Below, one piece after another: positions 2-57,989 of a DNA stretch of 64,000 bases. The DNA comes from Nitrospirota bacterium. Its GTDB lineage: Bacteria; Nitrospirota; Thermodesulfovibrionia; UBA6902; JAJYJJ01. Within the stretch, counting starts at the first letter, position 1; every line of letters begins with the position of its first letter. The position numbers were made by a program, and so were the translations under genes. The stretch is from positions 66,617 through 130,616 of the forward strand of contig JAJYJJ010000004.1 of NCBI GenBank assembly GCA_021789595.1, in the 5' to 3' direction. The notes below the pieces were generated by a model. It ran no database searches. It was not told where the DNA came from and saw only the letters and a list, made by a program, of their open reading frames with translations.

Positions 2-169
2 ATAAAAAGATCGATAATCAAACTGCTTAGGTCATACGAAGAGGTAGATGAAAATATAAGGAAAAAGTTGCAGTCCTATTCGAAAAAAATCGTTGAAGGC
101 AGCCCTGAATGGGATGTCCTCTACCAGAAGTTCTTACATGAAGAGGAGGCGAAAAGGGGCTTTGAGTGA
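2..169 (+). CDS. 3' end of an upstream gene of unknown function (C-terminal fragment ...SPEWDVLYQKFLHEEEAKRGFE*)
   Basis: Open frame runs from the window edge to a TGA at 167-169. There is no recognisable domain. The stop overlaps the GTG start of the next gene. Confidence 0.3.
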   Translation: MKRSIIKLLRSYEEVDENIRKKLQSYSKKIVEGSPEWDVLYQKFLHEEEAKRGFE

Positions 170-2190
170 GCTGGAGTTCTGTATCCCCCTATAATAATCC
201 TTTTGCAAGGTATATCTTCCCACTAATCATCCTATCCCTGTATTCAGGGTTTATCCTTAAGGTTCCTGAACGGTTCCCCTATCCATGGATGGTTATAACA
301 GGTATTACAGCCATCCTCGCGGTAACAGCCTATTTGATAAATAAAGGCAGGTCATTCAGGCCGGAGCTTTACCTTCTTTCCTCCGTCTTCCTATGCCTTG
401 GCACAGTTATAAACATGGTAGGGAAGCCTTGGCTGCCATGGGCATATATCCCTGTTGCAGCTATTATAGCTGTCGTCTTCAACCTGAGGGTTATCCCTCT
501 GTCCTTTGTACTGATTACAATCCTTAACAGGGGAATCCCCTATAGATGGGAAAGGGCAGAGGCTGCTGTGTTTTATGCATCCTTGCTGATATTGCCCTTT
601 GTTATATCCGGGTTTCTCAGCGCAGAACGCAAGAAAAAGGAGGGATTTCAGAGAGACCTTGATCGCATAAAGGCAGAGGCTCATGGGCTTGATATGCATG
701 GAGATAGGGCGCTTGGCTCATTTATTGATGAAAGACATCTTTCACACCTTGTCAGTTCAACGCTTGAGCTTGACAGCGAGCTTACAGAGATTGTTGAACT
801 TGTTGGCATATCCACATCGTCTGATTTTTCAGGTTATTTTTTCTATGAGGGCGATTCCCTCGTTCTCAAGGCATCTTCAGGAAGGTCTTATCCAAAAAAC
901 AGGATCCCGATAGGCGAAAGCTACCTGTCCCTTATTGTGAAGGGAAGGATACCTGTATTGCTTTCAGGATTAAAGGGCAGGCCATTTAATCTCGGTTATG
1001 ACAACACATCTGAGATAAGTTGCTTTCTCGGCGTTCCTGTCCTCGACAGTGGTCTCATTTATGGCGTCCTTGCAATAGACAGTTTAAGGGACAATGCCTT
1101 TGGCGACAGGGAAAAGGATGTCCTTAATCTCTTTGGAAGGCAGATAATCCAGGCACATAAGAGGGCGTCAATACATAGCCAGATAGACAGTTCTGCAATG
1201 GGTTTTAAGGCACTCTACGAGGCGACCTCTGAGCTTAGCTCTGCGGAGTTGAGATTCTCCGATATAACAGAGAAGATTGTTTCCATAGCAGCAGAGATTG
1301 CTCAACCATGCTGTGTTGTGCTGTTTCTTGTTAAAGGCAATGGCCTTGAGGTGGCATCGAAGGTTGGCCTTGATATAAAGGATAAGGAATATACAGCAGA
1401 CGGAACCCTGCTTGAGTGGATAATAAGTAACAGGCAGTCCCTCACTTTTTCTGACATGGCAGAGAAGGATAGGAAAATATTCCCCTTTAAGGTCAAGGAT
1501 ATGAAGTCATTTCTCGGCTTACCATTGACATACGAAGACGAGGTCATTGGAATCCTTACGGTTTTATCGCAGCAGGCAGGGGCATTTCGTTATCAGCAGA
1601 GCCATCTCCTCGGCATCCTCACCAACCATGCTGCAATAGCCCTTGCAAATGCGAGGCTTCACCTCGAGGTAAAGAGGATTGCAATAACAGACGGCCTTAC
1701 AGGGCTTTTCAATCACAGACATTTCCAGGAATGCCTTCAACAGGAATTTGAGCGTCTTGGGAGGTTTTCAGAGCCACTCTCGCTTATGCTTCTTGACATC
1801 GACCATTTTAAAAAGGTAAATGATACATATGGCCATCCTGCTGGAGATGCTGTATTAAAGGGTATTGCACAGATACTCAGAGCAACCTTGAGGGCGGTGG
1901 ATATCCCTGCAAGATATGGCGGCGAGGAATTTGCCGCTATACTTATAGGGACAGACTCTTCAGGCGCAAAGAACATGGCGGAAAGACTCAGAAAGACTGT
2001 TGAGAAGACCGTTTTTCCTGTAGATGGAAGGCCGCTGAAGGTGACGATGAGCATAGGTATATCGAGCTATCCGTCAGATGCCAGGAAAAAGGAAGAACTC
2101 ATTGAAAAGGCAGACCAGGCGATGTATCATGCAAAGAAAAGTGGCAGAAATCATAGCTATCTCTGGAGTGAGATAAGCAGAGAGTCATAG
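166..2190 (+). CDS. membrane-anchored diguanylate cyclase (N-terminal TM helices, GAF-like domains, C-terminal GGDEF)
   Basis: GTG start at 166. Hydrophobic N-terminus. C-terminal GGDEF signature 'RYGGEEFAAIL' with an upstream 'DIDHFKKVNDTYGH' motif typical of diguanylate cyclases. Confidence 0.85.
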   Translation: MSWSSVSPYNNPFARYIFPLIILSLYSGFILKVPERFPYPWMVITGITAILAVTAYLINKGRSFRPELYLLSSVFLCLGTVINMVGKPWLPWAYIPVAAIIAVVFNLRVIPLSFVLITILNRGIPYRWERAEAAVFYASLLILPFVISGFLSAERKKKEGFQRDLDRIKAEAHGLDMHGDRALGSFIDERHLSHLVSSTLELDSELTEIVELVGISTSSDFSGYFFYEGDSLVLKASSGRSYPKNRIPIGESYLSLIVKGRIPVLLSGLKGRPFNLGYDNTSEISCFLGVPVLDSGLIYGVLAIDSLRDNAFGDREKDVLNLFGRQIIQAHKRASIHSQIDSSAMGFKALYEATSELSSAELRFSDITEKIVSIAAEIAQPCCVVLFLVKGNGLEVASKVGLDIKDKEYTADGTLLEWIISNRQSLTFSDMAEKDRKIFPFKVKDMKSFLGLPLTYEDEVIGILTVLSQQAGAFRYQQSHLLGILTNHAAIALANARLHLEVKRIAITDGLTGLFNHRHFQECLQQEFERLGRFSEPLSLMLLDIDHFKKVNDTYGHPAGDAVLKGIAQILRATLRAVDIPARYGGEEFAAILIGTDSSGAKNMAERLRKTVEKTVFPVDGRPLKVTMSIGISSYPSDARKKEELIEKADQAMYHAKKSGRNHSYLWSEISRES

Positions 2191-3248
2191 ACATCATCCA
2201 CTGAGATCTCTTTCAGACATCTAACACCGGTCTTACACCTCGGAGTATAGCCAAATTTTGTGCATGGGCTGCAGGGCAGATGCCTGTTTATTGTTACATG
2301 CCTTTTGTCTCTTGGGGCCCATTTTTCCTCGATGCTAGAGCCAAAAAGGCAAACAGTTGGAGTGCCTACACCATAAGCAATGTGCATTATTCCAGAATCA
2401 GCAGTAATCAGGGCAGATGAATTAGCAATTACAGCCGTTGTCTTTAAGAGGTCTGTCCTGCCGACAAGGTCTAATACACGGCTGTTTATCAAAACGATCC
2501 TTTCTGAATCCCGAAGCTCTGCTTTGCCGCCAATGAGTATCACTTTATATCCATCATTAGAGAGCCTCATGGAAAGCTCGGCAAATCTATCAGTGCCCCA
2601 TCTTTTTTCCATCACAGATGCCCCTGTGAATATTGTGACCACATCCTGCCTCTGTGCCTCTATGGTATTTTTCGCCCATGAGTTTATGTTCTCTGGGACA
2701 CGGATGAACGGCTCATCAGGATTAAAGTCTCCTGCAGGACCCAAGAGAGGGCCGATCAGGTTTAAAAAACTGTATACCTCATAGTCAGAATGACTGTATG
2801 GAATCTTATGTGTAAAAAGCCTCTCACGCTCATTGGTTGCAAAGCCTATCCTTACAGGCGCCTTTGTGAGATAGGCAACAACAGCAGAAAGCCTGTGCCA
2901 CTGCTCTGTATCAATGACTACATTGTATTTGTTTTTGAGGCATCTAAAAATGTCAAACCCTCTGTCATAAAGATAAATTTTGTTTATAGAATTTGAAAGT
3001 CTGAATATGTCTGCATTTCTTTTTTCAGCGAGGATGTCAATAGATGTGCCTGGAAGATTCTCTTTTAGCGTCTGAATTGCAGGCAGAAGAAGCACCGCAT
3101 CGCCGATGCCGCCAGGGCGGATGATGATAATGCGATTTATATTTCCTACAGTATTTTTGGAGGCATAGATAAATCGTATTAAGCTAATCAGTAAGGGTCC
3201 AAAGATTGCATCTAATATCTTTAATGCCTTATTATTCTTGAAAGTCAT
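2157..3248 (-). CDS. glycosyltransferase family 9 (ADP-heptose:LPS heptosyltransferase-like)
   Basis: 'RIIIIRPGGIGDAVLLLPAIQTLKENLPG' N-terminal motif characteristic of GT9 heptosyltransferases. The ORF track begins at a TTG at 3317. The internal ATG at 3248 avoids overlap with the upstream gene and is preferred. Last gene of the pilin/glycosylation operon; its 3' end is convergent with and overlaps the GGDEF gene by 34 nt. Confidence 0.7.
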   Translation of the reverse strand: MTFKNNKALKILDAIFGPLLISLIRFIYASKNTVGNINRIIIIRPGGIGDAVLLLPAIQTLKENLPGTSIDILAEKRNADIFRLSNSINKIYLYDRGFDIFRCLKNKYNVVIDTEQWHRLSAVVAYLTKAPVRIGFATNERERLFTHKIPYSHSDYEVYSFLNLIGPLLGPAGDFNPDEPFIRVPENINSWAKNTIEAQRQDVVTIFTGASVMEKRWGTDRFAELSMRLSNDGYKVILIGGKAELRDSERIVLINSRVLDLVGRTDLLKTTAVIANSSALITADSGIMHIAYGVGTPTVCLFGSSIEEKWAPRDKRHVTINRHLPCSPCTKFGYTPRCKTGVRCLKEISVDDVYDSLLISLQR

Positions 3249-3276
3249 TTTGTAATAAGATAATAAATGTGTATAA

Positions 3277-4323
3277 TTAGTGATAAAATTTTTTGACTTC
3301 GAGCAAGGCAGCCTCAAATTTTTCTTTACTTTTCCTTATGTCGAATTGTTTTGCAGTTTCATAGGCATTATGCAAAATCCTTGAATCAATAATCCTTGAA
3401 TTTATTGTTTCCGAGATTTTTTTAACTAATCCCTTATCATCGCCGATAGGAACAACAATTGCATTATACCCATCAGTAACATATGGGACTGCAGGAGTTG
3501 TTATAACTAAGCAGCCGCAGGCCATAGCCTCAAGAGGGAACAAACCAAATCCCTCGTAGCGCGAGGGGTAAAGGAAGATGTCAGCACTGCTTAATATTCT
3601 TCGCATAACATTATCTTCTGGAGAACCGAGATATCTTGTTGTGCATGGTAAGATATTGTTATATAGTTCATCGCCGCATACCCATACCTCTAATCTATCC
3701 TTAAAATCTACACATAGCTTCTTAAGGACATTGATTGTAATATCAAAACCTTTTCTGTAATGATCACCTCTTGAGAGGATGAATATCGATTTCCTTTCTC
3801 CTTTCTGCTGTACCAAATCAGGGTCGGGGTCACAATAAAACTTATCCATATCTATGCCAGTAGTAGCCGTTATAACTTTTGTTGCGCCATAGTTATCCTG
3901 GAGGGTCTTACTTAATACCTCAGAGTCAGAGATAACACACCCTTTCTTTAACCGTAAGAAAATGAAATATAGCATTTTAATAAGTAATCTAACAAACCTG
4001 TTTTTATAGTACTCAGTATCGTGGGCCTGGGCAAGATAAATGACATTATTTCTCACCCCAACAAACAGGGAAAGATGTATGATGTCTACGATAACAATAT
4101 CCGAATCGAAATCTTTGATTAATCCATATAGCAATGTCCCTATCCTTGTTGGCAATGGTATATGGTTTAGTTCGACTGAGGGATTTATATCAAAGATTGT
4201 ATCAAATTTATCGATATAGAATTTAACCTCATGCCCCCTGTCAACAAGATAATTAGCATATTCAATTACTACCCTATCCCCTCCACGATTCAATAGAGAA
4301 TACCTTATGAATGATATTTTCAA
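3277..4323 (-). CDS. glycosyltransferase family 4 (GT-B, retaining)
   Basis: C-terminal 'EGFGLFPLEAMACGCLVITT' motif typical of GT4/GT1 glycosyltransferases. 348 aa. Confidence 0.8.
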   Translation of the reverse strand: MKISFIRYSLLNRGGDRVVIEYANYLVDRGHEVKFYIDKFDTIFDINPSVELNHIPLPTRIGTLLYGLIKDFDSDIVIVDIIHLSLFVGVRNNVIYLAQAHDTEYYKNRFVRLLIKMLYFIFLRLKKGCVISDSEVLSKTLQDNYGATKVITATTGIDMDKFYCDPDPDLVQQKGERKSIFILSRGDHYRKGFDITINVLKKLCVDFKDRLEVWVCGDELYNNILPCTTRYLGSPEDNVMRRILSSADIFLYPSRYEGFGLFPLEAMACGCLVITTPAVPYVTDGYNAIVVPIGDDKGLVKKISETINSRIIDSRILHNAYETAKQFDIRKSKEKFEAALLEVKKFYH

Positions 4324-4357
4324 TATCTTATCCTCCTATATTTTTCCCATTTCCACG

Positions 4358-5212
4358 TTATTTAGAGTAGATAATTATAGCTAATATTATAATCCACAAT
4401 GATATTGTTGTGGCCAATTGCCTATCTCGGTATATCGCCTCTGTAGGGTCGCCTAACCCTGTTTTTGAGAGCAATATGTATCTAAAAAGCCCAAAGGTTA
4501 TGATGGGGATTGTATAGAATAGACCTTTTGGTTGTTCTATTGAATATAGGCCATATGCGATGAGAGAGGCTGCTCCTGAGATCCACAGGATACCGTCAAG
4601 AAAGCCTGCAGGGTATGATTTAATGCCCATTCTGTGGGCCTCAGGATTTGCATTTATGCTACGGGTCTCACCAATCCTTTTCCCTGCTGCCAGCAATAGA
4701 GAAAGCAGAAAGATACTCAAGAAAAGCCATTTTGATATCTCGATATTAAAGGCTGCTCCTCCTGCCATAACACGGATCACAAAGCCAGAGGCAATGGCAA
4801 ATATATCTAAAAGCACTATGTCTTTAAGGTAAAAGGAATAACAGAGCTGTAGGACAAGATATCCGAACAGATATAGGGCAAATATTTTAGAGACATTGAG
4901 TCCGATAATCACCGATGACACAAAAAGCATGCCTGCGAGGATATGGGCATCTCCTAAAGAAACCTTGCCTGAGGCTATTGCCCTGTTCTTTTTTTTCGGA
5001 TGATTTCTATCAAAGGGCATATCCTTAATATCATTGATTATGTAAGATGCACTTGCCATAAATGAAAAGGAGGAAAATACCGGTATGAATCGCAGGATTA
5101 TTTCGGTGTCGAGTATCTTACCGGCGAAGAAAGGTGCTGAGAATACAAGGAGATTTTTTATCCAGTGTTTCGGCCTGAGGAGAGACAGATAATCACTAAT
5201 TCTTTGTTTCAT
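4358..5212 (-). CDS. UbiA-family prenyltransferase, decaprenyl-phosphate phosphoribosyltransferase-like (polyprenyl-phosphate pentose synthase)
   Basis: Multi-TM protein with an NDxxDxxxD motif ('INDIKDMPFDRNHPKKKNRAIASG') typical of Rv3806c/UbiA-like 5-phosphoribosyl-1-pyrophosphate:polyprenyl-phosphate transferases. Confidence 0.7.
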   Translation of the reverse strand: MKQRISDYLSLLRPKHWIKNLLVFSAPFFAGKILDTEIILRFIPVFSSFSFMASASYIINDIKDMPFDRNHPKKKNRAIASGKVSLGDAHILAGMLFVSSVIIGLNVSKIFALYLFGYLVLQLCYSFYLKDIVLLDIFAIASGFVIRVMAGGAAFNIEISKWLFLSIFLLSLLLAAGKRIGETRSINANPEAHRMGIKSYPAGFLDGILWISGAASLIAYGLYSIEQPKGLFYTIPIITFGLFRYILLSKTGLGDPTEAIYRDRQLATTISLWIIILAIIIYSK

Positions 5213-6932
5213 TCAGTCTCTTTATCAGTTTTCTTGCGGGGTTTGAGAAATATTCATTCGGGGACAATTCAATTGCCTTTTTAAAGTATTCAATTGCCCT
5301 TTTTTTCTCTCCGAGGGCTAAATAGAATTGGCCTGTTCGATATAGATAAAGACCATTCCTGTCAATATCATAGAGCTGCTTTAGGTAGGAGATAATCTCC
5401 GTGTAGAATCGCTTCTGTTTATCCAGGTTCTTTTCTTCCATGAGTTGATTCTCAGTGATCTTTATAACCTTCTGGAGTATCTCTACGGATAGCTGAGGGG
5501 TTGGTTTTTTCTCTAAGAGCCGTAGATACTCCTCTTTTGCCTCTTCAGGCTTCCTTTGCATTGATAAAGTTATGATGTTCATGGACGGCACTTCTTTATA
5601 CTTCACATTTCCTGCAAGCCTTTTAGCTATCCTAAACTGTTCTGATGCCTCTTTGACCTTCCCATTCCTCAATAAGGTAAGACCATAATCGTTTCTTGCT
5701 GCGGCAAAATTTGGAGACTTTTTGACTGTATCTGAGAACAGTGTAAGGTTGCTCTGCCAGACAATATTGCGGTTTACTGTTATTGCAGCAGATGCTATCA
5801 ACAGGATTGCTAATGCCCCGTATATTAGTTCTTTTTTCCACGGTATGCGGTTAATCAGCAATACTATGAGAACAGATACCCCGAAGCTTGATATATAGAG
5901 GTATCTCTCTGCCAACGGAGTCCATGCCATCTTTGACAGGGCAACAGGGATTGCTACTATAAAAAATGGTATAGAAGAGAGGAAGAGGAATGATGATAAT
6001 GTCCTTCGTCTGAGGAATAGATATAGGGCAACCACCGAGGCAATTATTCCAAACCAGAAATAAAGTGTTCTGTTTATCTCTATAATGCCGAAATTAAGGG
6101 GAAGTGGTATGAAGAGCTTCTTGATGTAAAAGCCAAATGCCTTTATGGCACCGCTGATGCTTATTAGGAGACTGCCATTATCTACAGCCCTTGCTGCTGT
6201 TTCAACCCCTGTATCAGCGATATAACCGGAGGCAATGGTTCGCATCAGAAAATATACAGCAGTCATGAACAGAAAAGGAAGAAAAAGCCTGAACCGCCTC
6301 TCAATAACAATGTCTTCGATATGTCGTTCCTTTAAGATAAGGAATAATCCAATTACAGGCAAAAGCCCTATGGCAACCTCCTTTGAGAGAAGTCCCATAA
6401 GATATAATAGAGCAGATATCCAGCACCAGAGGTCATTTTCTATCCCTTTTTTAAGGAAGACCAGAAAAGACATAAATACAAACATCCCTGCAAGCACATC
6501 TGTCCTTCCTGAAATCCAGTTCACAGGCTCTGTATTTACAGGATTGATGATAAAAAATATAGAGGCGAGCATCGGGATATATGGATCAGCAGCAATCCTG
6601 AATATCCTTAACAACTCTTTAACTATGAAAAAGATTAGAACACCATTTGCTGTATGAATAAGCATATTATTAAGGTGCATAAAGGATGCACTGCAGTCAA
6701 ACACGAACCTGTCGAAGAGAAAGGTCAGCGCCAGTAGCGGGCGGTAATAATAGATGGGGTTTCCTGGGAAGAAGATACCCTTCCAATCTACATGATAGGT
6801 ATTCAGTAGGTTTGTTATCATCATGTGGTCATCGACAGTATTGACCTGCCCAAATATAGACGGGTAATACACACCGAGAGAGATGAAGATGATGAACAGG
6901 ATCTTGTATCTGTCAGAAAGCTCAGTCCTCAT
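5196..6932 (-). CDS. GT-C fold membrane glycosyltransferase with C-terminal TPR repeats (TMTC/PMT_2-like; TfpW-like candidate protein O-glycosyltransferase)
   Basis: N-terminal multi-TM domain (about 400 aa) with a first-loop 'VDDHMM' acidic motif and 'YYYRPLLALTF...HLNNMLIHTANGVLIFF' (DUF1736/TMTC-like pattern), followed by TPR-like repeats ('ALGEKKRAIEYFKKAIELSP'). Overlaps neighbouring genes by 11-17 nt, so it is operonic. Confidence 0.6.
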   Translation of the reverse strand: MRTELSDRYKILFIIFISLGVYYPSIFGQVNTVDDHMMITNLLNTYHVDWKGIFFPGNPIYYYRPLLALTFLFDRFVFDCSASFMHLNNMLIHTANGVLIFFIVKELLRIFRIAADPYIPMLASIFFIINPVNTEPVNWISGRTDVLAGMFVFMSFLVFLKKGIENDLWCWISALLYLMGLLSKEVAIGLLPVIGLFLILKERHIEDIVIERRFRLFLPFLFMTAVYFLMRTIASGYIADTGVETAARAVDNGSLLISISGAIKAFGFYIKKLFIPLPLNFGIIEINRTLYFWFGIIASVVALYLFLRRRTLSSFLFLSSIPFFIVAIPVALSKMAWTPLAERYLYISSFGVSVLIVLLINRIPWKKELIYGALAILLIASAAITVNRNIVWQSNLTLFSDTVKKSPNFAAARNDYGLTLLRNGKVKEASEQFRIAKRLAGNVKYKEVPSMNIITLSMQRKPEEAKEEYLRLLEKKPTPQLSVEILQKVIKITENQLMEEKNLDKQKRFYTEIISYLKQLYDIDRNGLYLYRTGQFYLALGEKKRAIEYFKKAIELSPNEYFSNPARKLIKRLNETKN

Positions 6933-7905
6933 TTGCGATCTCGGTAAATAGTTCCTCGAGCCCTTTCCTTACAGGCTCAATCATCTGTATGGATGTCTCT
7001 TTATCCTTTATGACTTCAGACAAGACAGATTCCAGATCCTCCTGTTTTATAATACATGTTGAAAATAATCCCCCCTTGCCTCCCTTTACTAAAAGAGGGG
7101 AGGGGGAATTATCAGGTGAAAAATCTTTAGTTAGCTCTATATCTTCACTTATAGTTTTAAAGAAATTTGCCATATGTCCGGATATAGTGTTGAATGTCAG
7201 AAGGTAGCCTTTGATCCCCTTTGCCATTATGTCCCTTATGGATTCTACAAGCCTGAGCTCTCCTTTTACAATAATCCCAACCCTGTCGCATATTGTCTCT
7301 ATGTCATTCAATATATGGGTGGACATAAATACGCATTTGCCTTTAGACTTTAGATCAAGGATTATGTCCCTGACAAGGATTCTTCCTATAGGGTCAAGGC
7401 CGCTCATCGGTTCGTCCAGTATAAGAATATCTGGGTCATGGATAAGACATTGGGCAAGCCCCAATCTCTGCACCATGCCTTTTGAATAGCCCTTTATCGG
7501 CCTTTTCCTTGCATCATAGAGGTCAAGCAGTTTCAAAAGCCTATCTGAACCTTCAAGAATCGCATCAGCGCTCATCTTAAATGTCCTGCCGACAAAGGAA
7601 AGAAGTTCCTCGCCTGTTAGATAATCATAGAAGCTCGGATTTTCTGAAAGATAACCAGCCATCTTTTTATAACTTAATGATGTCCCTGCAATTCCATTGA
7701 TATAGAATTCTCCTGATGTTGGATAGATAAGGCCCATAAGGAGCTTGATGGTTGTAGTTTTCCCTGCACCGTTTGGCCCAAGAAAGCCAAATACTTCTCC
7801 CTTCTGAACATCGAGGTTCAGGTCTTTGAGTGCATCCACATGTTTGCCTTTTTTACCCTTATATGTTTTACTCAGGCCTTCTGTCTTTATTGCTGTGTTC
7901 AACAT
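6922..7905 (-). CDS. ABC transporter ATP-binding protein (ABC-2 exporter ATPase) with a C-terminal extension
   Basis: Walker A 'GPNGAGKTTT', signature 'YSKGMVQRLGLAQ', Walker B 'ILILDEPMSGLD'. Likely start at internal Met 'MLNTAIKTEGLSKTY' (7905) rather than the ORF-track start at 7953. Confidence 0.85.
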   Translation of the reverse strand: MLNTAIKTEGLSKTYKGKKGKHVDALKDLNLDVQKGEVFGFLGPNGAGKTTTIKLLMGLIYPTSGEFYINGIAGTSLSYKKMAGYLSENPSFYDYLTGEELLSFVGRTFKMSADAILEGSDRLLKLLDLYDARKRPIKGYSKGMVQRLGLAQCLIHDPDILILDEPMSGLDPIGRILVRDIILDLKSKGKCVFMSTHILNDIETICDRVGIIVKGELRLVESIRDIMAKGIKGYLLTFNTISGHMANFFKTISEDIELTKDFSPDNSPSPLLVKGGKGGLFSTCIIKQEDLESVLSEVIKDKETSIQMIEPVRKGLEELFTEIANED

Positions 7906-8746
7906 TCCCTCCAAATGCAAATTTGCTCGTTGTCCGTATTTCCCCCTTTTCACTTATGTAAAATCTTCCTCCATAAGGGTCTTCAGGTATCTTTTTTATT
8001 ATACCTTTATCAGTCAGTTCTTCGATGTTCGATGGTTTACGGTGATAAAGCTCTTCAAACTTCTTTTCTCCTTTTTCTAAAAAGGCGACAGCCTCAAGTG
8101 CCTTCAGCCTAATTTCGAGTGTCTGCTTGACCTTTTGATTCCATGTCTTATCTATCATGAACTTCAGAAAGGAGATGGCAATCCCTGTCTCATCGGATTC
8201 GTATAAAAACCTTGCAGCAAGATTGGTATAGAGCGAGTCGCCTGTGATCCTTGCTGCCTGTTCCATATATTGAGCCGCCTTCTTATAGTCCTTTAAAAAA
8301 TAAAAGTTATTAAACCCTAAAAAAAATGGCAGATAGAAATCCCATGTCCTGTATTTAAGTCCCCTTTCAAGCAGATAATCCACTTCTTTTATCCTCCCAA
8401 GTCCCCATGTAAAGACTGCCTCTGAGAAATAGTAGGAGTCTATGTTATATGGGTCTATGTATGTTGATGCATCGAGGAATCTATACATATTGAAGTATTC
8501 TATATCCTTTTTAGCAAAGGGTTTTTCTGTGTCAAACTTGCCGCCGTAGTATGTAATTACCTTAAAGAACAGCCACTCGCTTATAAGTGGCTTATACTCC
8601 ATGGCAGCAATCCGCAGAATCTGCTTTTGCGGCAGGTAGCCGAGCTTTTCCTCAGCGGGTTTTCCTGAGATATAGGATATTAGCCTACCGTAGATAGGGA
8701 TAATCAGTATTAAAGAGGCAAGCATTACAGCAATAATTCTTTTCAT
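7868..8746 (-). CDS. hypothetical membrane-anchored or secreted protein
   Basis: N-terminal hydrophobic segment 'MKRIIAVMLASLILIIPIY'. No recognisable catalytic motif. Sits between the pilin and the ABC ATPase in the same operon. Confidence 0.45.
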   Translation of the reverse strand: MKRIIAVMLASLILIIPIYGRLISYISGKPAEEKLGYLPQKQILRIAAMEYKPLISEWLFFKVITYYGGKFDTEKPFAKKDIEYFNMYRFLDASTYIDPYNIDSYYFSEAVFTWGLGRIKEVDYLLERGLKYRTWDFYLPFFLGFNNFYFLKDYKKAAQYMEQAARITGDSLYTNLAARFLYESDETGIAISFLKFMIDKTWNQKVKQTLEIRLKALEAVAFLEKGEKKFEELYHRKPSNIEELTDKGIIKKIPEDPYGGRFYISEKGEIRTTSKFAFGGNVEHSNKDRRPE

Positions 8747-8773
8747 AAGGTTTTATGGGTATAATAATAGATA

Positions 8774-8992
8774 TTATGGATATTCCAGATAGTCAGCATA
8801 ATACCATTCCATCATTGCCTTTAAGTTCCTCAAGTCGCTTTGAGCTGCTGCATTATATGCCTTCATTTTATAAGACGAAAACATAGGTAATGCAATTGCT
8901 GCAAGGATAGCTATGATTGCTATGACAACGAGCAGCTCTATGAGAGTAAAGCCCTTATTCCTAAAATTTTTACTATTAGGAGATGTAGACAT
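8774..8992 (-). CDS. pilA: truncated type IV pilin, Geobacter PilA-N (e-pilin)-like, paralog 1
   Basis: Prepilin leader and cleavage/methylation site 'NKG|FTLIELLVVIAIIAILAAIALP'. The mature part is about 58 aa, with about 15% aromatic residues. Strong similarity to the Geobacter PilA core ('FTLIELLIVVAIIGILAAIAIPQF..YRVKAYNSAASSDLRNLK'). Confidence 0.85.
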   Translation of the reverse strand: MSTSPNSKNFRNKGFTLIELLVVIAIIAILAAIALPMFSSYKMKAYNAAAQSDLRNLKAMMEWYYADYLEYP

Positions 8993-9010
8993 GATTTCCC
9001 CCTTCTGATT

Positions 9011-9772
9011 TCACAGCAACTCCCTTCTTCTAAATATAAGGACTGAGATCCCAAGGACTATTATAATATAAAGTATTGCGTATGAAAGGACAGTGAGCAT
9101 ATAAGCAGGAGAGGTTGGAAGGCTGTATATGGCATTGAACTTAAAGTCGAGGGCGGTTAGATTTGGAAAGATATAATAAGCGGTCTTCGATAGATAGATG
9201 CTTGGTGAAGGCAGTTTTGTTCCATGAGGGCTGTTTATGTAATCCATTACAGCCTGTGTCACATTGCCAATGATATAGACCCCCACGGTTGCAAATAGGG
9301 GGAGAAACAGGTTTGTGGAGAAGGATGAGAAAAGGATAGATGCGGATGCTACGATGATTAATGCAATAAATTCAAAAAAGACTGCTGCTATAAAGTTCTC
9401 ATAGGACATCGGGATAGATGATTGATAAAGTCTTGATGCTATTGTTATGCCAATAAGAGAAAAGGCAGAGAGGATGGCAACACCAGAGCCTATAATACCA
9501 GAAAGCCCTAAGAATTTCCCGAGGATAAATGCCTCCCTCGATACAGGCATGGATATAACAGGGTGAGCAAACCTCCTTTCCATATCCCTGTAAACAAGGT
9601 TTACACCGAGGAATATCGTCAGGATAAGGGATACGAATGAGATTATGGAGAGCGATAGGCCGACAGACACCTCTCGAGGTTGTCTCATAGATAAGGAGCT
9701 TATTGCAGGGACAAGGATGATAAAACATAGTATAGAGACCGCTAACAGGGTAATAAATACCTTATCCCTCAT
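9011..9772 (-). CDS. ABC-2 family transporter permease
   Basis: About 6 predicted TM helices, size and hydropathy of ABC-2 permeases. Start placed at internal ATG (9772, 'MRDKVFITLL') because the ORF-track start at 9844 would overlap the upstream terminator hairpin. Confidence 0.7.
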   Translation of the reverse strand: MRDKVFITLLAVSILCFIILVPAISSLSMRQPREVSVGLSLSIISFVSLILTIFLGVNLVYRDMERRFAHPVISMPVSREAFILGKFLGLSGIIGSGVAILSAFSLIGITIASRLYQSSIPMSYENFIAAVFFEFIALIIVASASILFSSFSTNLFLPLFATVGVYIIGNVTQAVMDYINSPHGTKLPSPSIYLSKTAYYIFPNLTALDFKFNAIYSLPTSPAYMLTVLSYAILYIIIVLGISVLIFRRRELL

Positions 9773-9819
9773 GCCGCCTTTAAATGTTATCTTTGCTATC
9801 TCTAAAATAATAACCACCT

Positions 9820-9848
9820 GAAAAAGAAAAGGGGTCGTTGCCAACCCC
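9820..9848 (-). terminator. rho-independent terminator downstream of the pilA-N/pilA-C-like pair
   Basis: Minus-strand hairpin GGGGTTG-GCAA-CGACCCC (7 bp stem, GNRA loop) followed by TTTTCTTTTTC, 26 nt after the stop of the PilA-C-like gene. Confidence 0.55.
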
Positions 9849-9873
9849 TTTTCTAAAGCTTATACTGGATTGA

Positions 9874-10215
9874 CTATAGTGAGTTCCAACCACTAAATGC
9901 CGCTGAAGTACTCACGCTCGGCGAGGCTGATATATTTGTCCCTGTAGTCGCAGCTGTCCAATAGATAGTAGTGGAGTCTGCAGATACGCCAAACTCCCTG
10001 TCTCCATTAAGATGTTTTGAGACCGCTGCATAATGCGTGGTATCATCTATGACGTAAACCTTCACATTGCGTGATGCCTGAAATGTCTGGGAACTACCAG
10101 GGAATGTTATGGTTGTCACATCTGTGCTACTATTCCAGGTACCACCAGCGGCAAATGCTATTGCCGCGCCTAAGGCAAAACTCAATGCAATTACGAGTAT
10201 AATTATCTTCTTCAT
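9874..10215 (-). CDS. small secreted Ser/Thr-rich protein, candidate PilA-C-like partner of the short pilin
   Basis: ATG at 10215 preceded by GGAGG. Signal peptide 'MKKIIILVIALSFALGAAIAFAAG'. The mature part is about 90 aa and Ser/Thr-rich. Starts 13 nt after the pilin stop, mirroring the Geobacter pilA-N/pilA-C arrangement. Confidence 0.5.
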   Translation of the reverse strand: MKKIIILVIALSFALGAAIAFAAGGTWNSSTDVTTITFPGSSQTFQASRNVKVYVIDDTTHYAAVSKHLNGDREFGVSADSTTIYWTAATTGTNISASPSVSTSAAFSGWNSL

Positions 10216-10228
10216 ATCAACCTCCTTT

Positions 10229-10447
10229 TTATGGATAATACTGGAAGTCAGCATAATATGCTTCCATTGCTGTCTTGAAGTTCCTCAGGTCGCTCTCTGC
10301 GGCTGAGTTATATGCCTTTGTCCTGTATGCTGCAAACTGTGGTATTGCAATTGCAGCAAGGATGGCTATAATCGCCACGACCACGAGGAGCTCGATAAGG
10401 GTAAAACCCTTTTCATTGCCCTTCATACGATTGATTGTCTTTAACAT
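10229..10447 (-). CDS. pilA: truncated type IV pilin, Geobacter PilA-N (e-pilin)-like, paralog 2
   Basis: 'NEKG|FTLIELLVVVAIIAILAAIAIPQFAAYRTKAYNSAAESDLRNFKTAMEAYYADFQYYP' is near-identical in its core to Geobacter sulfurreducens PilA. 10 of 58 mature residues are aromatic. Strong GGAGGAGG ribosome-binding site. Confidence 0.85.
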   Translation of the reverse strand: MLKTINRMKGNEKGFTLIELLVVVAIIAILAAIAIPQFAAYRTKAYNSAAESDLRNFKTAMEAYYADFQYYP

Positions 10448-10597: not shown

Positions 10598-10613
10598 AGC
10601 AGATTCCATGCCA
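10598..10613 (-). promoter_or_regulatory. candidate sigma54 (-24/-12) promoter upstream of pilA paralog 2
   Basis: Minus-strand TGGCAT-GGAAT-CTGCT. GG and GC elements are at canonical spacing (consensus TGGCAC-N5-TTGCW), about 150 nt upstream of the pilin start. Geobacter pilA is RpoN/PilR dependent. Confidence 0.3.
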
Positions 10614-24427: not shown

Positions 24428-25126
24428 TTAAGAGAATAACCTGAAGAGCAGAAATGTTATGGTGATGCCGAGTAGGGCGCCAAGAAAGACCTCCCATGGA
24501 CTGTGTGCTCCTATGGCAACCCTGCTCTGTGCAATGAGGATTGCAAGGATAAATACGAGGAACGATGGGAAGAATGCCTCTGTTATGTATGTAACTGCTA
24601 TCCATACAGAGAAGGCTACTGCGGCATGGCCGCTCGGCATTCCGCCCCTAAGCGGGAGGCCCCTGCCAAGGAATGCCTTTGTTATGATAACAGCGATTAT
24701 CACGATTATCAATGCTATTATGGATATATCCTCGTTTGAGTGTTTTGCCATTGTAATGCCTTCGTAGAAGAATCGCCTCAGGTAAGGAATAAAGATTATA
24801 TAGCCAACAATTACCGCGCCAAATGCAGATACAAGCACTGCGCCTGCTGCTATATCCTTGGCAGCCTTTGCCTTGATGTGATACTCGCTTGAAAGCAGGT
24901 CAACAGTGGCCTCTACAGCAGTGTTTAGCATCTCGGCCATGAGGACAAGTGTCACTGTAATTGTTACGGCTATGAATTCTTCTCTGTTTACACCGATGAT
25001 ATAGCTGAGTATCAAGACGGCAACCGCGGCATAGAAATGATACCTGAGGTGGCGTTGTGTCTTTGCTGCCTGAAGAATGCCCTCTATTGCATGGTTAGTG
25101 CTTTCGATAAGTCTTCTTAAGGGCAT
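24428..25126 (-). CDS. dgkA: fusion of diacylglycerol/undecaprenol kinase (DgkA) with a PAP2 phosphatase domain
   Basis: N-terminal DgkA fold ('NHAIEG...RHLRYHF...EMLNTAVEATVDL'). C-terminal PAP2 motifs ('PSGHAAVAFS', 'AQSRVAIGAHSPWEV'). Confidence 0.7.
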   Translation of the reverse strand: MPLRRLIESTNHAIEGILQAAKTQRHLRYHFYAAVAVLILSYIIGVNREEFIAVTITVTLVLMAEMLNTAVEATVDLLSSEYHIKAKAAKDIAAGAVLVSAFGAVIVGYIIFIPYLRRFFYEGITMAKHSNEDISIIALIIVIIAVIITKAFLGRGLPLRGGMPSGHAAVAFSVWIAVTYITEAFFPSFLVFILAILIAQSRVAIGAHSPWEVFLGALLGITITFLLFRLFS

Positions 25127-42977: not shown

Positions 42978-43517
42978 ATGAAATCCATCAATAAAAAGAC
43001 ACTCCTATGGTTAGGTGTGTTTATCCTGGTCGGTTTGTATCTTTACCCTGTTATTAAAGGGAGGATTGCCTTTGCCAATGGCAGGCCAGCAGTAAATGAG
43101 ACAGCACCTGATTTTACCTTGACCGATTTAAACGGCAAAAGGGTAACACTGTCAGATTTTAGGGGTAAGGTGGTGCTCCTTAATTTCTGGGCAAGCTGGT
43201 GTCCTCCATGCCGTATGGAGATACCGGGCTTTCAGAGATTTTATGAGGGCTATAAGAATAAGGGGTTTGTTATTATCGGGCTGTCATTGGATGATACTGG
43301 GCACTCTACAGTTTCATCCTTTGTCAAGAAAATGGGGATTACCTATCCCATTGTCATGGCCGATAGCAAGGTAGTAAGAGATTATGGGAATATCTCTGCC
43401 ATACCAACATCTTTCCTGATAGATAAGAATGGCAGGATTGTGAAAAAGACAATGGGGATGCTTTTAGAGGGGACCCTTAAAGGGGAAGTGGATAGTGCCC
43501 TCAATAACAGGTCTTAG
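42978..43517 (+). CDS. thiol:disulfide oxidoreductase, TlpA/ResA family (thioredoxin fold)
   Basis: N-terminal TM anchor. '[13 protein letters not shown]' CxxC active site. Confidence 0.8.
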
Positions 43518-43529
43518 TGGAGGATTAAA

Positions 43530-44258
43530 ATGGAAAATATATCTGTGTTTGTTGCCTTTACAGCAGGGCTGTTGTCATTTCTATCGCCCTGTGTCTTGCC
43601 TGTTATCCCCTCTTATGTTTCTTATATAACAGGTATATCTTTTGAGGACCTTTCAGGTGCACAGGACAGGGCAAGGATAAGGAGAATAACGCTGAAGAAC
43701 TCCTTTTTCTTCATTGCCGGATTCTCCCTTATATTCGTTATGCTCGGTGCATCTTCAAGTCTTCTGGGCAAGGTCCTTTCTGATTATCAGAATATCATCA
43801 GAAAGGCAGGCGGGATACTGATTGTGCTGTTTGGCCTTTATATAGCAGGGATTCTGAGGCTCAGGTTTCTCTCAGGTGAGAAGAAACTTCATGTCCAGAG
43901 CAAACCTGCTGGGCTTCTCGGTTCTTTCCTTGTAGGTGTGGCCTTTGCTGCAGGATGGACGCCATGCATCGGTCCTGTCTTGGGCTCGATCCTATTATAT
44001 GCAGGCACAACCACCTCTGTTGCATCAGGGATGGGACTTCTTGCATCTTACGCCCTTGGGTTAGGTATTCCCTTTCTCATCACCTCTTTGGCCATCAACA
44101 GCTTCCTCTCGTATTTCAAGCACATCAACCGATACATGAAGCCCATATCTACTGTAAGCGGGCTGTTTCTTATAGTAGTAGGGATTCTGCTGTTCACAGG
44201 CTCTTTCGGGGTCCTGAGCCAGTATCTATCTATGCTGACAGGTGCTTTAGGTGTATAA
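43530..44258 (+). CDS. ccdA: cytochrome c-type biogenesis protein CcdA, paralog 2
   Basis: 'FLSPCVLPVIPSYVSYITG' and 'WTPCIGPVLG'. Paralog of the gene at 13335-14069 (same length, high identity). Confidence 0.8.
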   Translation: MENISVFVAFTAGLLSFLSPCVLPVIPSYVSYITGISFEDLSGAQDRARIRRITLKNSFFFIAGFSLIFVMLGASSSLLGKVLSDYQNIIRKAGGILIVLFGLYIAGILRLRFLSGEKKLHVQSKPAGLLGSFLVGVAFAAGWTPCIGPVLGSILLYAGTTTSVASGMGLLASYALGLGIPFLITSLAINSFLSYFKHINRYMKPISTVSGLFLIVVGILLFTGSFGVLSQYLSMLTGALGV

Positions 44259-44307
44259 TTATGGGGAGAGAATTTCTCTCCCCATTCTGCACTGAGGAGG
44301 TAGAACG

Positions 44308-46188
44308 ATGAAAAAATGTTTACTTCTATTAGGATTAACTTTAATCCTTCTTACACTATTATTGGAGTATGGATTCTCTGAGGAGACCGGCTCCTGCCTT
44401 CAGTGCCACAGTGATGCAAAGAAGATGAAGGAGCTTGGCTATCCAGAGTTTACCATGACACAAGAGGAGGTAGAAAAACAGACAGGTATGCCTGCAACCT
44501 GTGAGATGTGCCATCAGGGAAATCCCAATGACAATACCATCAAGGGAGCGCATAAGGGTATCTTAAGCCTATCTGTAGTCATGAAGAAGGGTGCTATTGC
44601 AGTGCCAAGGAAGGAGCTTAAAGGAGAGGACAGGGAATCTATCAAAAGCTTGAAACCAAAAGGTGATTTTGCAGGCAATACCCTTTTCCCAAGGGTAATT
44701 GGGAAGGATGGTAAGCCTGCGCTTAATCCGAGGGTGTCGGTTATCCAGTGGCATGACAAGGATCTTAACACTATTGCCTTTAATCCAGGTATTGCGGAGA
44801 AGACCTGCGGTATCTGTCATCCTAAAGAGGTCAAGAGCTACATGAAGACCGAAATGGGATTGACATTGACCATGAGCCAGTATGTGACCTGGTTCAGCCC
44901 CACAGGCCCTCAGAGCTGCGGCCTCTGGACAGCAGCCACTACAAAGCCCAGCAATGACAGCTTTACCACCGAAAATATGGAGCAATACAATGCTGTCAGC
45001 ACTGCCCATCTTGGCAAGGAACAGGCATTTTCCAACCAGAGGAATTGTAATACCTGCCATGCAGGTTGTCTGGATTGCCATTATAACCCTTTTAACAAAG
45101 AGGCAAAAGACAGTAAAGGCAGACCAAAAGAGGCAGGCGTTCATACCTTTTCCTTTAAGCCTCCGGTGCTTTCATGTATGGGTGATGGCAGGGCTCAGAT
45201 ATGTCATGCAGGCCCATTGGAAAGGCGAAGGGGAGATGGATTCATGAAAGGAAACTTTGCAGTAAAGGCTGTGGCTGACCCACAGAATGAAAATTCAAAA
45301 ATATATATCGAGACCCCTGATGTCCATTTTGCCAAAGGCATAACCTGTGCGGACTGTCATCGCCATAATCACAAGACCCATAACATGGGTGATCAGATAA
45401 GGAATCCTGAGCCCATACAGTGTGCAGAATGTCATAAGCAGGAGGTATCTGCAAATAAAAAGGGCATCCACAAGAATCTTTCCTGCGAGGCATGCCATAC
45501 CCCATTAGTGGTAGGATATGCCTTTAATTTCTGGGCACCTGGGAAAAGATTTGGCATGGAAACACCATTGGACAGGCATCAGTTTTATAATGTCAATGCA
45601 ATGCAGCCCATCATCCTTAAGAACAAGAAAGGGCAGTGGAATCCCTATCATATAGTTCCTCACATATCAACAAATGTGAAGAAAGAAGAGGTGAAGCTAT
45701 CCAAAGGACTTATATTCAGGAGCAAGCCAGATGTAAACATGAAGAGGGAGTATCCATCCAATGACGCCTTTGCCGTAACAGGAATCTATGAAGGGAGCAC
45801 CGATGAGGGCACGGTCATGGCGTGGCTGAACATCGACAAGGTTGCCCATGCCGTAACAAAGGCAAGGACATGCGATAGCTGTCATGGCTTAAATGGAACA
45901 CAGAAGATTTTAGTGGATTACAGGTGGATGGAAAAACCTGATAGTGCCTATAAGGATATCCTATCAGGCCATTACACGATTGTGTCCGATAGAAAGGGTT
46001 TGAGGATAGAGAATCTTTCAGGTGCTGATGGGAGATCTATACCTGATGGACTTAGACCTCTTGTAGGCAAGTGGGATTTAAAAGGAAACTTTTCCATCCC
46101 TCCAATAAGAGACAAAAAGGCATATGCCAGAGAAAAAGCACGATACGAAAGGATATTAGAAAGTGGTGGCAGATACCATTCGCAGTGA
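44308..46188 (+). CDS. secreted multiheme c-type cytochrome (nine canonical CxxCH sites plus one possible CX8CH)
   Basis: Signal peptide '[19 protein letters not shown]'. Heme-binding motifs CLQCH, CEMCH, CGICH, CNTCH, CLDCH, CADCH, CAECH, CEACH and CDSCH. Also '[11 protein letters not shown]'. Confidence 0.8.
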
Positions 46189-57492: not shown

Positions 57493-57813
57493 TCAGCCTC
57501 CGATGTAACCCCCGGAAACTGGCTCCTTTTCGAGCGGCTCTTTCTGCACACCTACGGAAGCTGTCCTTTCGACATCACTGGCGTACCCGGTCCAGTCAAA
57601 TGGGCAGACTTTCGTCAGTATCTCCAGCTTCCAGTCGATAAAGTTGACGATCTCGCGGAAATGTGGGATATGGGATTTCAGTATGTCCTTCTCGGACCCT
57701 GTCATCTGTTCGATTTCTGTCACAAAGCCAAGCAACCTTGACTTCATGCCGGAAAGTTCTTTGTACATTGAATCGCAGTAGTTCCTGAATCCTATGTCTT
57801 TTGCACTCACCAT
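57493..57813 (-). CDS. hypothetical protein (106 aa, no recognisable domain)
   Basis: ATG at 57813 with GGAGG 5 nt upstream. The ORF-track start at 57903 runs through the leader terminator hairpin and is rejected. Confidence 0.5.
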   Translation of the reverse strand: MVSAKDIGFRNYCDSMYKELSGMKSRLLGFVTEIEQMTGSEKDILKSHIPHFREIVNFIDWKLEILTKVCPFDWTGYASDVERTASVGVQKEPLEKEPVSGGYIGG

Positions 57814-57846
57814 AGTTGCCTCCTTTCCCTTGGCCACAAAGGCCTG

Positions 57847-57900
57847 ATAATAAAAAACCGAGCATGCCGAAGATTTCTGTGAATCCTTCGGCAACTCGGC
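57847..57900 (-). terminator. intrinsic terminator / attenuator within the 5' leader of the 57813 gene
   Basis: Minus-strand hairpin CCGAG-TTG-CCGAAGG...CCTTCGG-CATG-CTCGG followed by TTTTTTATT. Ends about 24 nt upstream of the ribosome-binding site. Confidence 0.5.
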
Positions 57901-57989
57901 CATGCTGAAACCTGTTCAGCACCCGCCGCTTTCCGCCCCCCTCTTTCGAGGGTTTAGCTTTTTCGGGAAGAGCACATCTTCTTAAAACT

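Follow-up and report, generated by a model that had tools for sequence, protein, structure and literature searches.

We analysed a stretch of DNA of 64,000 nucleotides (nt) from a Nitrospirota bacterium (GenBank assembly GCA_021789595.1, contig JAJYJJ010000004.1, positions 66,617-130,616), which we refer to as the window. An initial annotation had picked out two adjacent genes in it, one for a UbiA-type polyprenyl-phosphate phosphoribosyltransferase and one for a GT-C-like glycosyltransferase (GT) with tetratricopeptide repeats (TPRs), as a candidate lipid-linked pentose O-glycosylation system. Both open reading frames (ORFs), encoding 284 and 578 amino acids (aa), are present exactly where they had been placed, at 4358-5212 and 5196-6932 on the minus strand, and share 17 nt. 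Judged by sequence, they are real genes rather than chance ORFs, in the case of the GT-C gene because homologues were found down to E = 8.5e-252. The two are neighbours within a minus-strand cluster of ten tightly packed genes (2157-10447, with junctions of -86 to +34 nt), which is headed by a split pilin of the Geobacter type. Homologues of the GT-C protein occur in at least 502 genome loci; the loci that were fetched clustered as 81 non-redundant ones, whose genes were grouped by unsupervised ORF clustering. The features of the window cluster, in the direction of transcription, are:

10598-10613, minus strand: sigma-54-type -24/-12 promoter-like element, TGGCATGGAATCTGCT, 151 nt 5' of the pilA-N start (match to the consensus).
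10229-10447, minus strand: pilA-N, a truncated type IV prepilin of 72 aa (geopilin domain 1) whose prepilin-peptidase site reads KG|FTLIEL (matches to PDB sequences).
9874-10216, minus strand: pilA-C-like ORF of 113 aa with a Sec-type signal peptide, the candidate glycan acceptor (weak match to 9EGP_B, position and length).
9819-9854, minus strand: 13-bp hairpin followed by a U-run, a likely terminator or attenuator (folding energy compared with shuffled sequences).
9011-9844, minus strand: ABC-2 family permease (Pfam PF12679, 1.4e-08; 60/81 loci).
8774-8992, minus strand: second geopilin-like prepilin of 72 aa (intact KG|FTLIEL site).
7868-8746, minus strand: 292-aa partner of the ABC system, with an N-terminal transmembrane (TM) anchor, a TPR-like middle and a weakly GspG-like C-terminus (64/81 loci).
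6922-7953, minus strand: ABC transporter ATPase, DrrA/GldA/NodI-like (Pfam and NCBIfam; 67/81 loci).
5196-6932, minus strand: predicted GT-C fold glycosyltransferase with C-terminal TPRs, 578 aa (fold model, invariant residues, topology and Pfam TPR matches).
4358-5212, minus strand: predicted UbiA-superfamily polyprenyl-phosphate 5-phosphoribosyltransferase, 284 aa (Pfam, NCBIfam and PDB matches).
3277-4323, minus strand: GT4 Leloir glycosyltransferase, a variable accessory gene (Pfam and NCBIfam; about 12/81 loci).
2157-3317, minus strand: GT9 (heptosyltransferase-family) glycosyltransferase, a variable accessory gene (Pfam and NCBIfam; about 13/81 loci).

The UbiA protein matched PF01040 at 7.5e-25 in the Pfam search that the initial annotation had proposed (88.1 bits against a cutoff of 34.2), and the NCBIfam model NF008978, 'decaprenyl-phosphate phosphoribosyltransferase', at 230.7 bits, above the cutoff of 207. 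It fell below the cutoff in two sister models (NF008977, 217.6 vs 234; NF008976, 171.3 vs 474), and the heme-O synthase, UbiA, chlorophyll synthase and related NCBIfam models gave at most 50 bits. Among PDB sequences, M. tuberculosis Rv3806c (8J8J) matched at 1.9e-40, with residues 8-277 aligning on 17-295. By NF008978 and 8J8J the protein groups with the synthases of decaprenyl- and polyprenyl-phosphoryl-5-phosphoribose (DPPR and PPPR) rather than with menaquinone or heme-O prenyltransferases, and the NDxxDxxxD motif of Rv3806c type on which the initial annotation had relied agrees with both matches. In this loop II motif (N60-D61-x-x-D64-x-x-x-D68), N60, D61, D64 and D68 were present in 51/51 orthologues from the related loci, and the loop IV positions K178, R179 and E182 were at least 95% conserved in the same 51 sequences. 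Mutagenesis in C. youngae ORF15 and in Rv3806c has shown that these loop II and loop IV positions are required (PMC11127046). None of the orthologues, which are 277-319 aa long, is fused to a phosphoribose phosphatase domain as ORF15 is. Altogether, the sequence comparisons make it very probable that the 284-aa protein is a polyprenyl-phosphate 5-phosphoribosyltransferase (PPPRS) of the DPPR/PPPR synthase type.

The 578-aa protein consists of a TM part (approximately residues 1-395) and a TPR domain (approximately residues 396-578). Its sole family signal by sequence was the Pfam TPR matches at 399-433 and 508-560. A profile of the membrane domain found no PDB sequence at E ≤ 10, so that its relation to solved GT-C enzymes is visible by fold only, and the Pfam family PMT_2 was reached by 5 of 17 members of the GT-C family, with a best E-value of 5.2e-07. 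The TMTC_DUF1736 domain (PF08409), for which the initial annotation had suggested a search, was found neither in the window protein (E ≤ 0.01) nor in the 17 family members (E ≤ 10). AlphaFold modelled the full-length protein with a pLDDT of 91.9 and a pTM of 0.89, and the membrane domain alone with a pLDDT of 86.8 and a pTM of 0.90. When the model, with the TPRs removed, was compared with the PDB using Foldseek, the top 19 structures all had the GT-C fold (probability 0.96-1.00, query-normalised TM-score 0.36-0.53). They comprise AglB, STT3, Pmt4, Pmt1/2, AftD, PimE, EmbB, PglB and DPY19, plus PIGU, a catalytically inactive GT-C-like subunit of the glycosylphosphatidylinositol transamidase.

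Model helices and hydropathy gave 11 TM helices and a cytoplasmic N-terminus, which places the TPR domain of the model in the periplasm. Each of the short cytoplasmic loops has Lys or Arg residues inside it or at the adjoining helix ends. The 31 invariant residues that we considered lie in periplasmic loops or in TM helices, mostly at the periplasmic end, and none lies in a cytoplasmic loop, so that in the model the conserved face and the TPR domain both look into the periplasm. These invariants include D34, D35, Y62, R64, P65, H86, N89, H93, E135, R143, D145 and K184, as well as G267-F268-Y269, P276, P278, W337, T338, E342, R343 and Y344. The D34-D35 pair, located in periplasmic loop 1 after TM1, is invariant in 47 homologues and in the 17-sequence set, and the residues of the 'YRPL...HxxN' pattern (Y62, R64, P65, H86, N89 and H93) are invariant among the 47 homologues. 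The fourth periplasmic loop carries an invariant GFY-x6-P-x-PLNF motif (G267-F268-Y269-x6-P276-x-P278-L279). Alignment, model and Pfam thus confirmed the polytopic GT-C-like N-domain, the first-loop DD, the 'YRPL...HxxN' pattern and the C-terminal TPRs of the initial annotation, including the conservation of its putative catalytic acidic residues. Based on the predicted fold, the 578-aa protein is with high confidence a GT-C glycosyltransferase. Going only by the adjacent PPPRS gene, its donor would be a polyprenyl-phosphate-linked sugar. The membrane-domain profile matched 72,679 representatives at E ≤ 1e-10, which by sequence makes the window protein a single branch within a very large GT-C/TPR family.

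The pilA-N product matched the pilins of solved Geobacter pili, namely 9EGP_A ('Geopilin domain 1') at 1.7e-27, 7TGG_A at 1.9e-26 and 2M7G/6VK9 at 1.2e-23, and the KGFTLIEL prepilin-peptidase site is conserved in the short pilins. The 113-aa ORF that follows could be aligned with 'Geopilin domain 2' (PilA-C; 9EGP_B) over its whole length, but weakly (E = 0.098), and its position and length fit the PilA-C of 49 loci. PilA-C sequences are highly divergent (PMC6201914). Ser and Thr make up 33% of the mature 113-aa protein, and the median in the PilA-C family is 28%, compared with 10-15% in the other proteins of the module. The second prepilin (8774-8992) sits between the genes for the ABC-2 permease and the 292-aa protein; this insertion also occurs in the closest Thermodesulfovibrionales relatives, L003 and L004, and is absent from Geobacteraceae loci.

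The consensus of the sigma-54-type element upstream of pilA-N was matched 2 times in the window, where chance alone would give 0.42 matches. Near the pilin the window has neither pilS/pilR nor pilB/T/C genes, in contrast to Geomonas and Geobacter. The hairpin after the pilA-C stop is GC-rich, with a folding energy of -22.3 kcal/mol (z = -3.4) that none of 200 shuffled sequences equalled. The start codon assigned mechanically to the ABC-2 permease, a TTG, overlaps this hairpin, and the gene probably begins at a GTG near 9818, 3' of it. The pilin pair is probably a unit expressed at a high level, the remaining cluster being reached by read-through or re-initiation.

The GT-C homologues, which share 30-66% identity, come from Nitrospirota/Thermodesulfovibrionales, Geobacteraceae, Geomonas, Oryzomonas, Desulfuromonas, Geothermobacter, Desulfobulbus and Desulfurivibrio. 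Four module loci, L009 (WAQV01000001.1), L026, L070 and L074, are labelled as Pacearchaeota, Paludibacter, Saccharofermentanales or Rhodospirillaceae metagenome-assembled genomes; as the contigs are 2.6-34 kb long and have a Deltaproteobacteria-like gene content, these labels are probably binning errors and not the true hosts. In the 81 loci the core consists of the GT-C gene (81), the ABC ATPase (67), the ~293-aa protein (64), the short pilin (61), the ABC-2 permease (60), UbiA (53) and PilA-C (49), surrounded by a variable periphery of PilR (34), GT2 (30), PilS (24), PilT (23), PilC (22), Wzm (22), GT9 (13) and GT4 (12). All six partner genes were found together in 22 of the 40 loci with full flanks. 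The genes recur in two orders of equal content, with the GT-C gene either right after pilA-N/pilA-C (arrangement A) or after the ABC genes, and this alternation was seen across Nitrospirota, Desulfuromonadales and Desulfobulbales.

A UbiA gene was present within 5 kb downstream of the GT-C gene and on the same strand in 41 of 50 loci (82%), which supports the treatment of the two genes as one system in the initial annotation. We considered that the pair might nevertheless have no functional link, the lipid-linked ribose made by UbiA serving another pathway, or UbiA prenylating something else, and the GT-C enzyme using, for example, a polyprenyl-phosphate-hexose. The GT-C genes without a nearby UbiA gene (9/50 loci) would fit this explanation, as would the GT2 of some loci, which could be a polyprenyl-phosphate-hexose synthase, and the fact that the UbiA protein passes one of the three NCBIfam DPPR synthase models. 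However, the same-strand linkage extends across phyla, the two genes overlap in the window, and by Pfam and NCBIfam the window cluster encodes no other enzyme able to make a lipid-linked donor; we therefore regard the absence of a link as very unlikely.

Pilin genes are linked to the GT-C gene as well: of the 57 loci with sufficient flanking sequence, 54 have a short pilin on the same strand no more than 5 kb upstream of it, and in 27 of the 57 the distance is at most 1 kb. This bears on whether the protein could be a periplasmic enzyme for protein O-glycosylation in general, comparable to TMTC and PMT enzymes, whose TPRs recruit several secreted proteins such as extracellular cytochromes, with pilins as one substrate or none. 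Like eukaryotic TMTC1-4, the protein has a GT-C domain followed by lumenal/periplasmic TPRs, an architecture common to the TMTC enzymes, and some homologues resemble TMTC-like enzymes in having a PMT_2 match and the JGI label 'protein O-mannosyl-transferase'. The great size of the family would also suit a general enzyme, and extra densities on G. sulfurreducens OmcE have been reported and taken as glycosylation. In contrast, the near-obligate adjacency to pilin genes favours a dedicated substrate, the OmcE glycosylation has been ascribed to another gene cluster beside omcE, and the window protein differs from TMTC1-4 in having no TMTC_DUF1736 signature and in a genomic partner that points to a pentose donor rather than dolichyl-phosphate-mannose. 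A general O-glycosyltransferase thus appears quite unlikely.

The ABC-2 permease, the ABC ATPase and the 292-aa protein form a co-conserved trio (60, 67 and 64 of the 81 loci). The 292-aa protein has no Pfam or NCBIfam family match. It contains a single N-terminal TM helix and a TPR-like middle, for which an orthologue matches TPR_14 at 1.3e-05, and over the final ~50 residues it shows a weak similarity to the C-terminus of GspG, the type II secretion system pseudopilin ('IPxDPyGG'), with E-values of 0.1-0.3 to three GspG structures and to the Pfam family T2SSG. The ABC-2 class includes exporters of lipid-linked glycans. A comparable gene set is that of Myxococcus xanthus PilGHI, likened here by description, in which an ABC transporter is encoded beside the major pilin and its substrate is not established. 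We know of no GT-C or UbiA partner in Myxococcus.

We then considered which enzymes known from related pathways accompany the pair. The initial annotation had noted that no DprE1/DprE2 epimerase genes were visible in the window; this holds for the window, where a Pfam scan of all ORFs beyond the cluster that are 150 aa or longer and do not overlap one another (43) gave no FAD_binding_4 or SDR family member, and for the 81 related loci, in which no family of FAD-dependent DprE1, SDR-type DprE2, PAP2/HAD phosphatase, GtrA or MATE proteins is conserved. The 64-kb window also has no HAD phosphatase, GtrA or MATE genes. Its only PAP2-family gene encodes a fusion of DAGK_prokar (diacylglycerol/undecaprenol-kinase) and PAP2 (24428-25126, minus strand), which we rejected as the phosphatase of the system because it lies 19 kb away among housekeeping genes. 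Following the logic set by Kelly et al. (2024), by which the sugar is D-ribofuranose (Ribf) when the epimerase is missing, the sugar is probably D-ribofuranose rather than D-arabinofuranose, because no DprE1/E2-type epimerase was found in the window or conserved in its relatives. In some loci the UbiA gene is directly followed by an NAD-dependent epimerase/dehydratase (6 loci) or by Wzx-like MOP flippases (6 + 3 loci), for example at L003 12762-13718, L013 15211-16722 and L010 8001-9446, which hints that the glycan differs between lineages. The epimerase beside UbiA in L003 and L004, which Pfam places no finer than the NAD-dependent epimerase/dehydratase family, was rejected as a DprE/ORF13 analogue owing to its UDP-xylose-synthase-like appearance and its occurrence in only 6 loci.

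The known system closest to the module is the arabinosylation of group IV pilins in P. aeruginosa (TfpW together with PsPA7_6246-6249). There, tfpW lies directly 3' of pilA and its product, which needs a PPPRS, combines a loop 1 DDx and a loop 4 Y-x6-P motif with TPRs at the C-terminus (preprint 10.1101/2020.04.19.049825). The window protein shares with TfpW a GT-C domain of about 11 TM helices, the loop 1 DD, the loop 4 Y-x6-P and the TPRs; like TfpW it is encoded with the major pilin gene and has a UbiA-type polyprenyl-phosphate phosphoribosyltransferase as a partner. We judged this likeness on published motifs and architecture and not on a sequence alignment. In the proline motif, Y-x6-P is shared and the remaining spacing differs (Y-x6-P-x-P in the window protein, Y-x6-PF-x7-P in TfpW). 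The analogy is stronger because Geobacter-type pilin genes head the cluster both in the window and in 54/57 relatives, and in arrangement A the GT-C gene directly follows pilA-N/pilA-C, as tfpW follows pilA. Unlike the TfpW system, the window module has no DprE1/DprE2 and no GtrA-like protein, the ABC-2 trio being conserved instead, its pilin is divided into a PilA-N and a PilA-C part, and its hosts are anaerobic Nitrospirota and Desulfuromonadota.

A DPPR synthase-like enzyme combined with a periplasmic GT-C enzyme, with Ribf implied, is also found in the C. youngae system of ORF15 (PPPRS fused to a phosphoribose phosphatase), ORF14 (MATE) and ORF12 (GT136) described by Kelly et al. (2024). 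In contrast to such three-component pentofuranose systems, the PPPRS of the window has no fused HAD phosphatase and its cluster no MATE flippase, and the GT-C protein has TPRs where ORF12 has a carbohydrate-binding module, its likely acceptor being a protein and not an O-antigen. With the mycobacterial decaprenyl-phosphoarabinose pathway (Rv3807c, DprE1/E2, Emb/Aft) the module shares a clear Rv3806c homologue, the catalytic motif and a transferase of GT-C fold; it differs from it in having neither a PAP2 phosphatase nor epimerases linked to it and an acceptor other than arabinan, and the GT-C domain is much smaller than those of Emb/Aft and fused to TPRs. As it lacks DprE1/E2 and GtrA, the fused phosphatase, MATE and the carbohydrate-binding module, and DUF1736, we place the module outside the TfpW, GT136 and TMTC families, although it would work in a similar way to TfpW and the three-component systems.

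Taken together, the family of the UbiA protein, the GT-C fold and the conserved linkage support the candidate lipid-linked pentose O-glycosylation system of the initial annotation, and from the gene context we infer the pilin as the acceptor, a pentose as the sugar and the activities of the enzymes. On balance, we consider it somewhat probable that the UbiA and GT-C proteins are the enzymatic core of a TfpW-like module for pilin-linked periplasmic O-pentofuranosylation. At the cytoplasmic face, the UbiA-type enzyme would transfer ribose-5-phosphate from phosphoribosyl pyrophosphate (PRPP) onto polyprenyl phosphate, the reaction carried out by Rv3806c, PsPA7_6246 and C. youngae ORF15. The lipid-linked pentose would then be brought to the periplasmic leaflet, most economically by the ABC-2 permease, the ATPase and the 292-aa protein, and dephosphorylation, if any, would need an unlinked phosphatase. 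Finally, the GT-C enzyme would place the pentofuranose on Ser/Thr residues of the split pilin before pilus assembly, as gene context and architecture suggest; the likeliest acceptor is the Sec-exported, Ser/Thr-rich PilA-C, and the TPR domain would hold the protein substrate. GT4 and GT9 in the window, and GT2, Wzm and Wzt elsewhere, are additions that differ from lineage to lineage and may make the glycan longer or more varied.

The module also has a counterpart in G. sulfurreducens, in which pilA-N/pilA-C and the 'xap' genes (GSU1496-GSU1508) comprise the same pilins and, as far as the loci of Geomonas and Geobacteraceae indicate, also the genes that lie downstream of them here. The module thus appears to be part of the Geobacter xap cluster, with GSU1498 as the GT-C gene and GSU1502 as the UbiA gene by contiguous numbering alone. 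Since xapD is annotated as an ABC ATPase (PMC5585712), the ATPase of the window cluster is probably the counterpart of XapD. In the literature searched, the xap cluster is assigned to exopolysaccharide synthesis and export, and the GT-C/TPR protein, UbiA and pilin glycosylation are not discussed. PPPRS and the GT-C enzyme could therefore belong to a polysaccharide-modifying system, adding pentofuranose branches to an exopolysaccharide or lipopolysaccharide-type 'Xap' polymer that is built by the neighbouring Leloir glycosyltransferases and exported by the ABC transporter, the pilins being co-regulated neighbours only. Exopolysaccharide is reduced by about half in the xapD mutant, GT2 (25 loci), Wzm (18), GT4 and GT9 genes often lie 3' of the UbiA gene, and the combination of PPPRS and GT-C is a proven logic for O-antigen side chains (PMC11127046); the likely terminator 3' of pilA-C points the same way. 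The assignment of xap to exopolysaccharide was based on a single ATPase mutant. In favour of the pilin as the target, PilA was undetectable in the G. sulfurreducens xapD mutant (10.1101/114900). Against a polysaccharide acceptor, GT2 occurs in 42% and Wzm in 38% of the full-flank loci, compared with a pilin linkage of 95%, and the window has no Wzm/Wzt. TPRs are protein-binding modules, whereas ORF12, Emb and AftD have carbohydrate-binding modules, and arrangement A places the GT-C gene right after pilA-N/pilA-C, as with tfpW. A polysaccharide acceptor is thus a possibility to be kept in mind, albeit a rather unlikely one.

Several points weigh against pilin O-pentofuranosylation. The homologous Geobacter region GSU1498-1508 has been described as the extracellular anchoring polysaccharide (xap) cluster (PMC3495685). 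Conservation does not extend to any phosphatase, epimerase or known type of flippase, and the ABC trio may instead be a pilus-biogenesis system similar to the Myxococcus PilGHI ABC system, which has been tied to pilus biogenesis (PMC6060248), leaving the flipping step without a protein. UbiA is missing nearby in 9/50 loci and the pilin in 3/57, and with a likely terminator between pilA-C and the downstream genes, co-transcription is not assured. In the literature searched, no glycan on Geobacter-type pilins is documented and nothing links Geobacter pilins to a PPPRS or GT-C enzyme, papers on cryo-EM pili and on Tyr32 being outside that search. The only Geobacter pilin modification cited is glycerophosphate on PilA Tyr32 and not a pentose (PMC6201914), and the module offers no explanation for it.

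Elsewhere in the window, a GAF-GGDEF diguanylate cyclase (166-2190, plus strand) abuts the end of the glycosylation cluster. A c-di-GMP-I riboswitch (57887-57968, minus strand; 47.8 bits against a gathering score of 35) precedes a 136-aa ORF without assigned function (57493-57903). A row of thioredoxin/AhpC-like, DsbD_TM and 626-aa cytochrome-c7-related genes (42978-46188, plus strand) may be a unit for the maturation and export of multihaem cytochromes in the same genome as the geopilin.

It is tempting to speculate further that the split pilins carry ribofuranose, or ribose-5-phosphate given that no phosphatase is conserved, that the polyprenyl-phosphate-pentose is flipped by the ABC-2 transporter in place of a GtrA or MATE protein, and that the xap core including xapD is a pilin-modification machine, a combination that we consider unlikely as a whole. 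The identity and role of PilA-N/PilA-C in Geobacter pili have been disputed for two decades, and if the pair glycosylates the pilin, this would provide a concrete explanation for the loss of PilA and the mislocalised cytochromes in xap mutants. PRPP-derived pentofuranose glycosylation has so far been described for mycobacteria, Pseudomonas pilins and enterobacterial O-antigens; if our interpretation is correct, its targets would come to include proteins of Nitrospirota and of anaerobes that reduce metals and sulfur. The same interpretation would also define a large GT-C/TPR subfamily, the membrane domain of which has no Pfam model, and provide a candidate ABC-type flippase for polyprenyl-monophosphate sugars.

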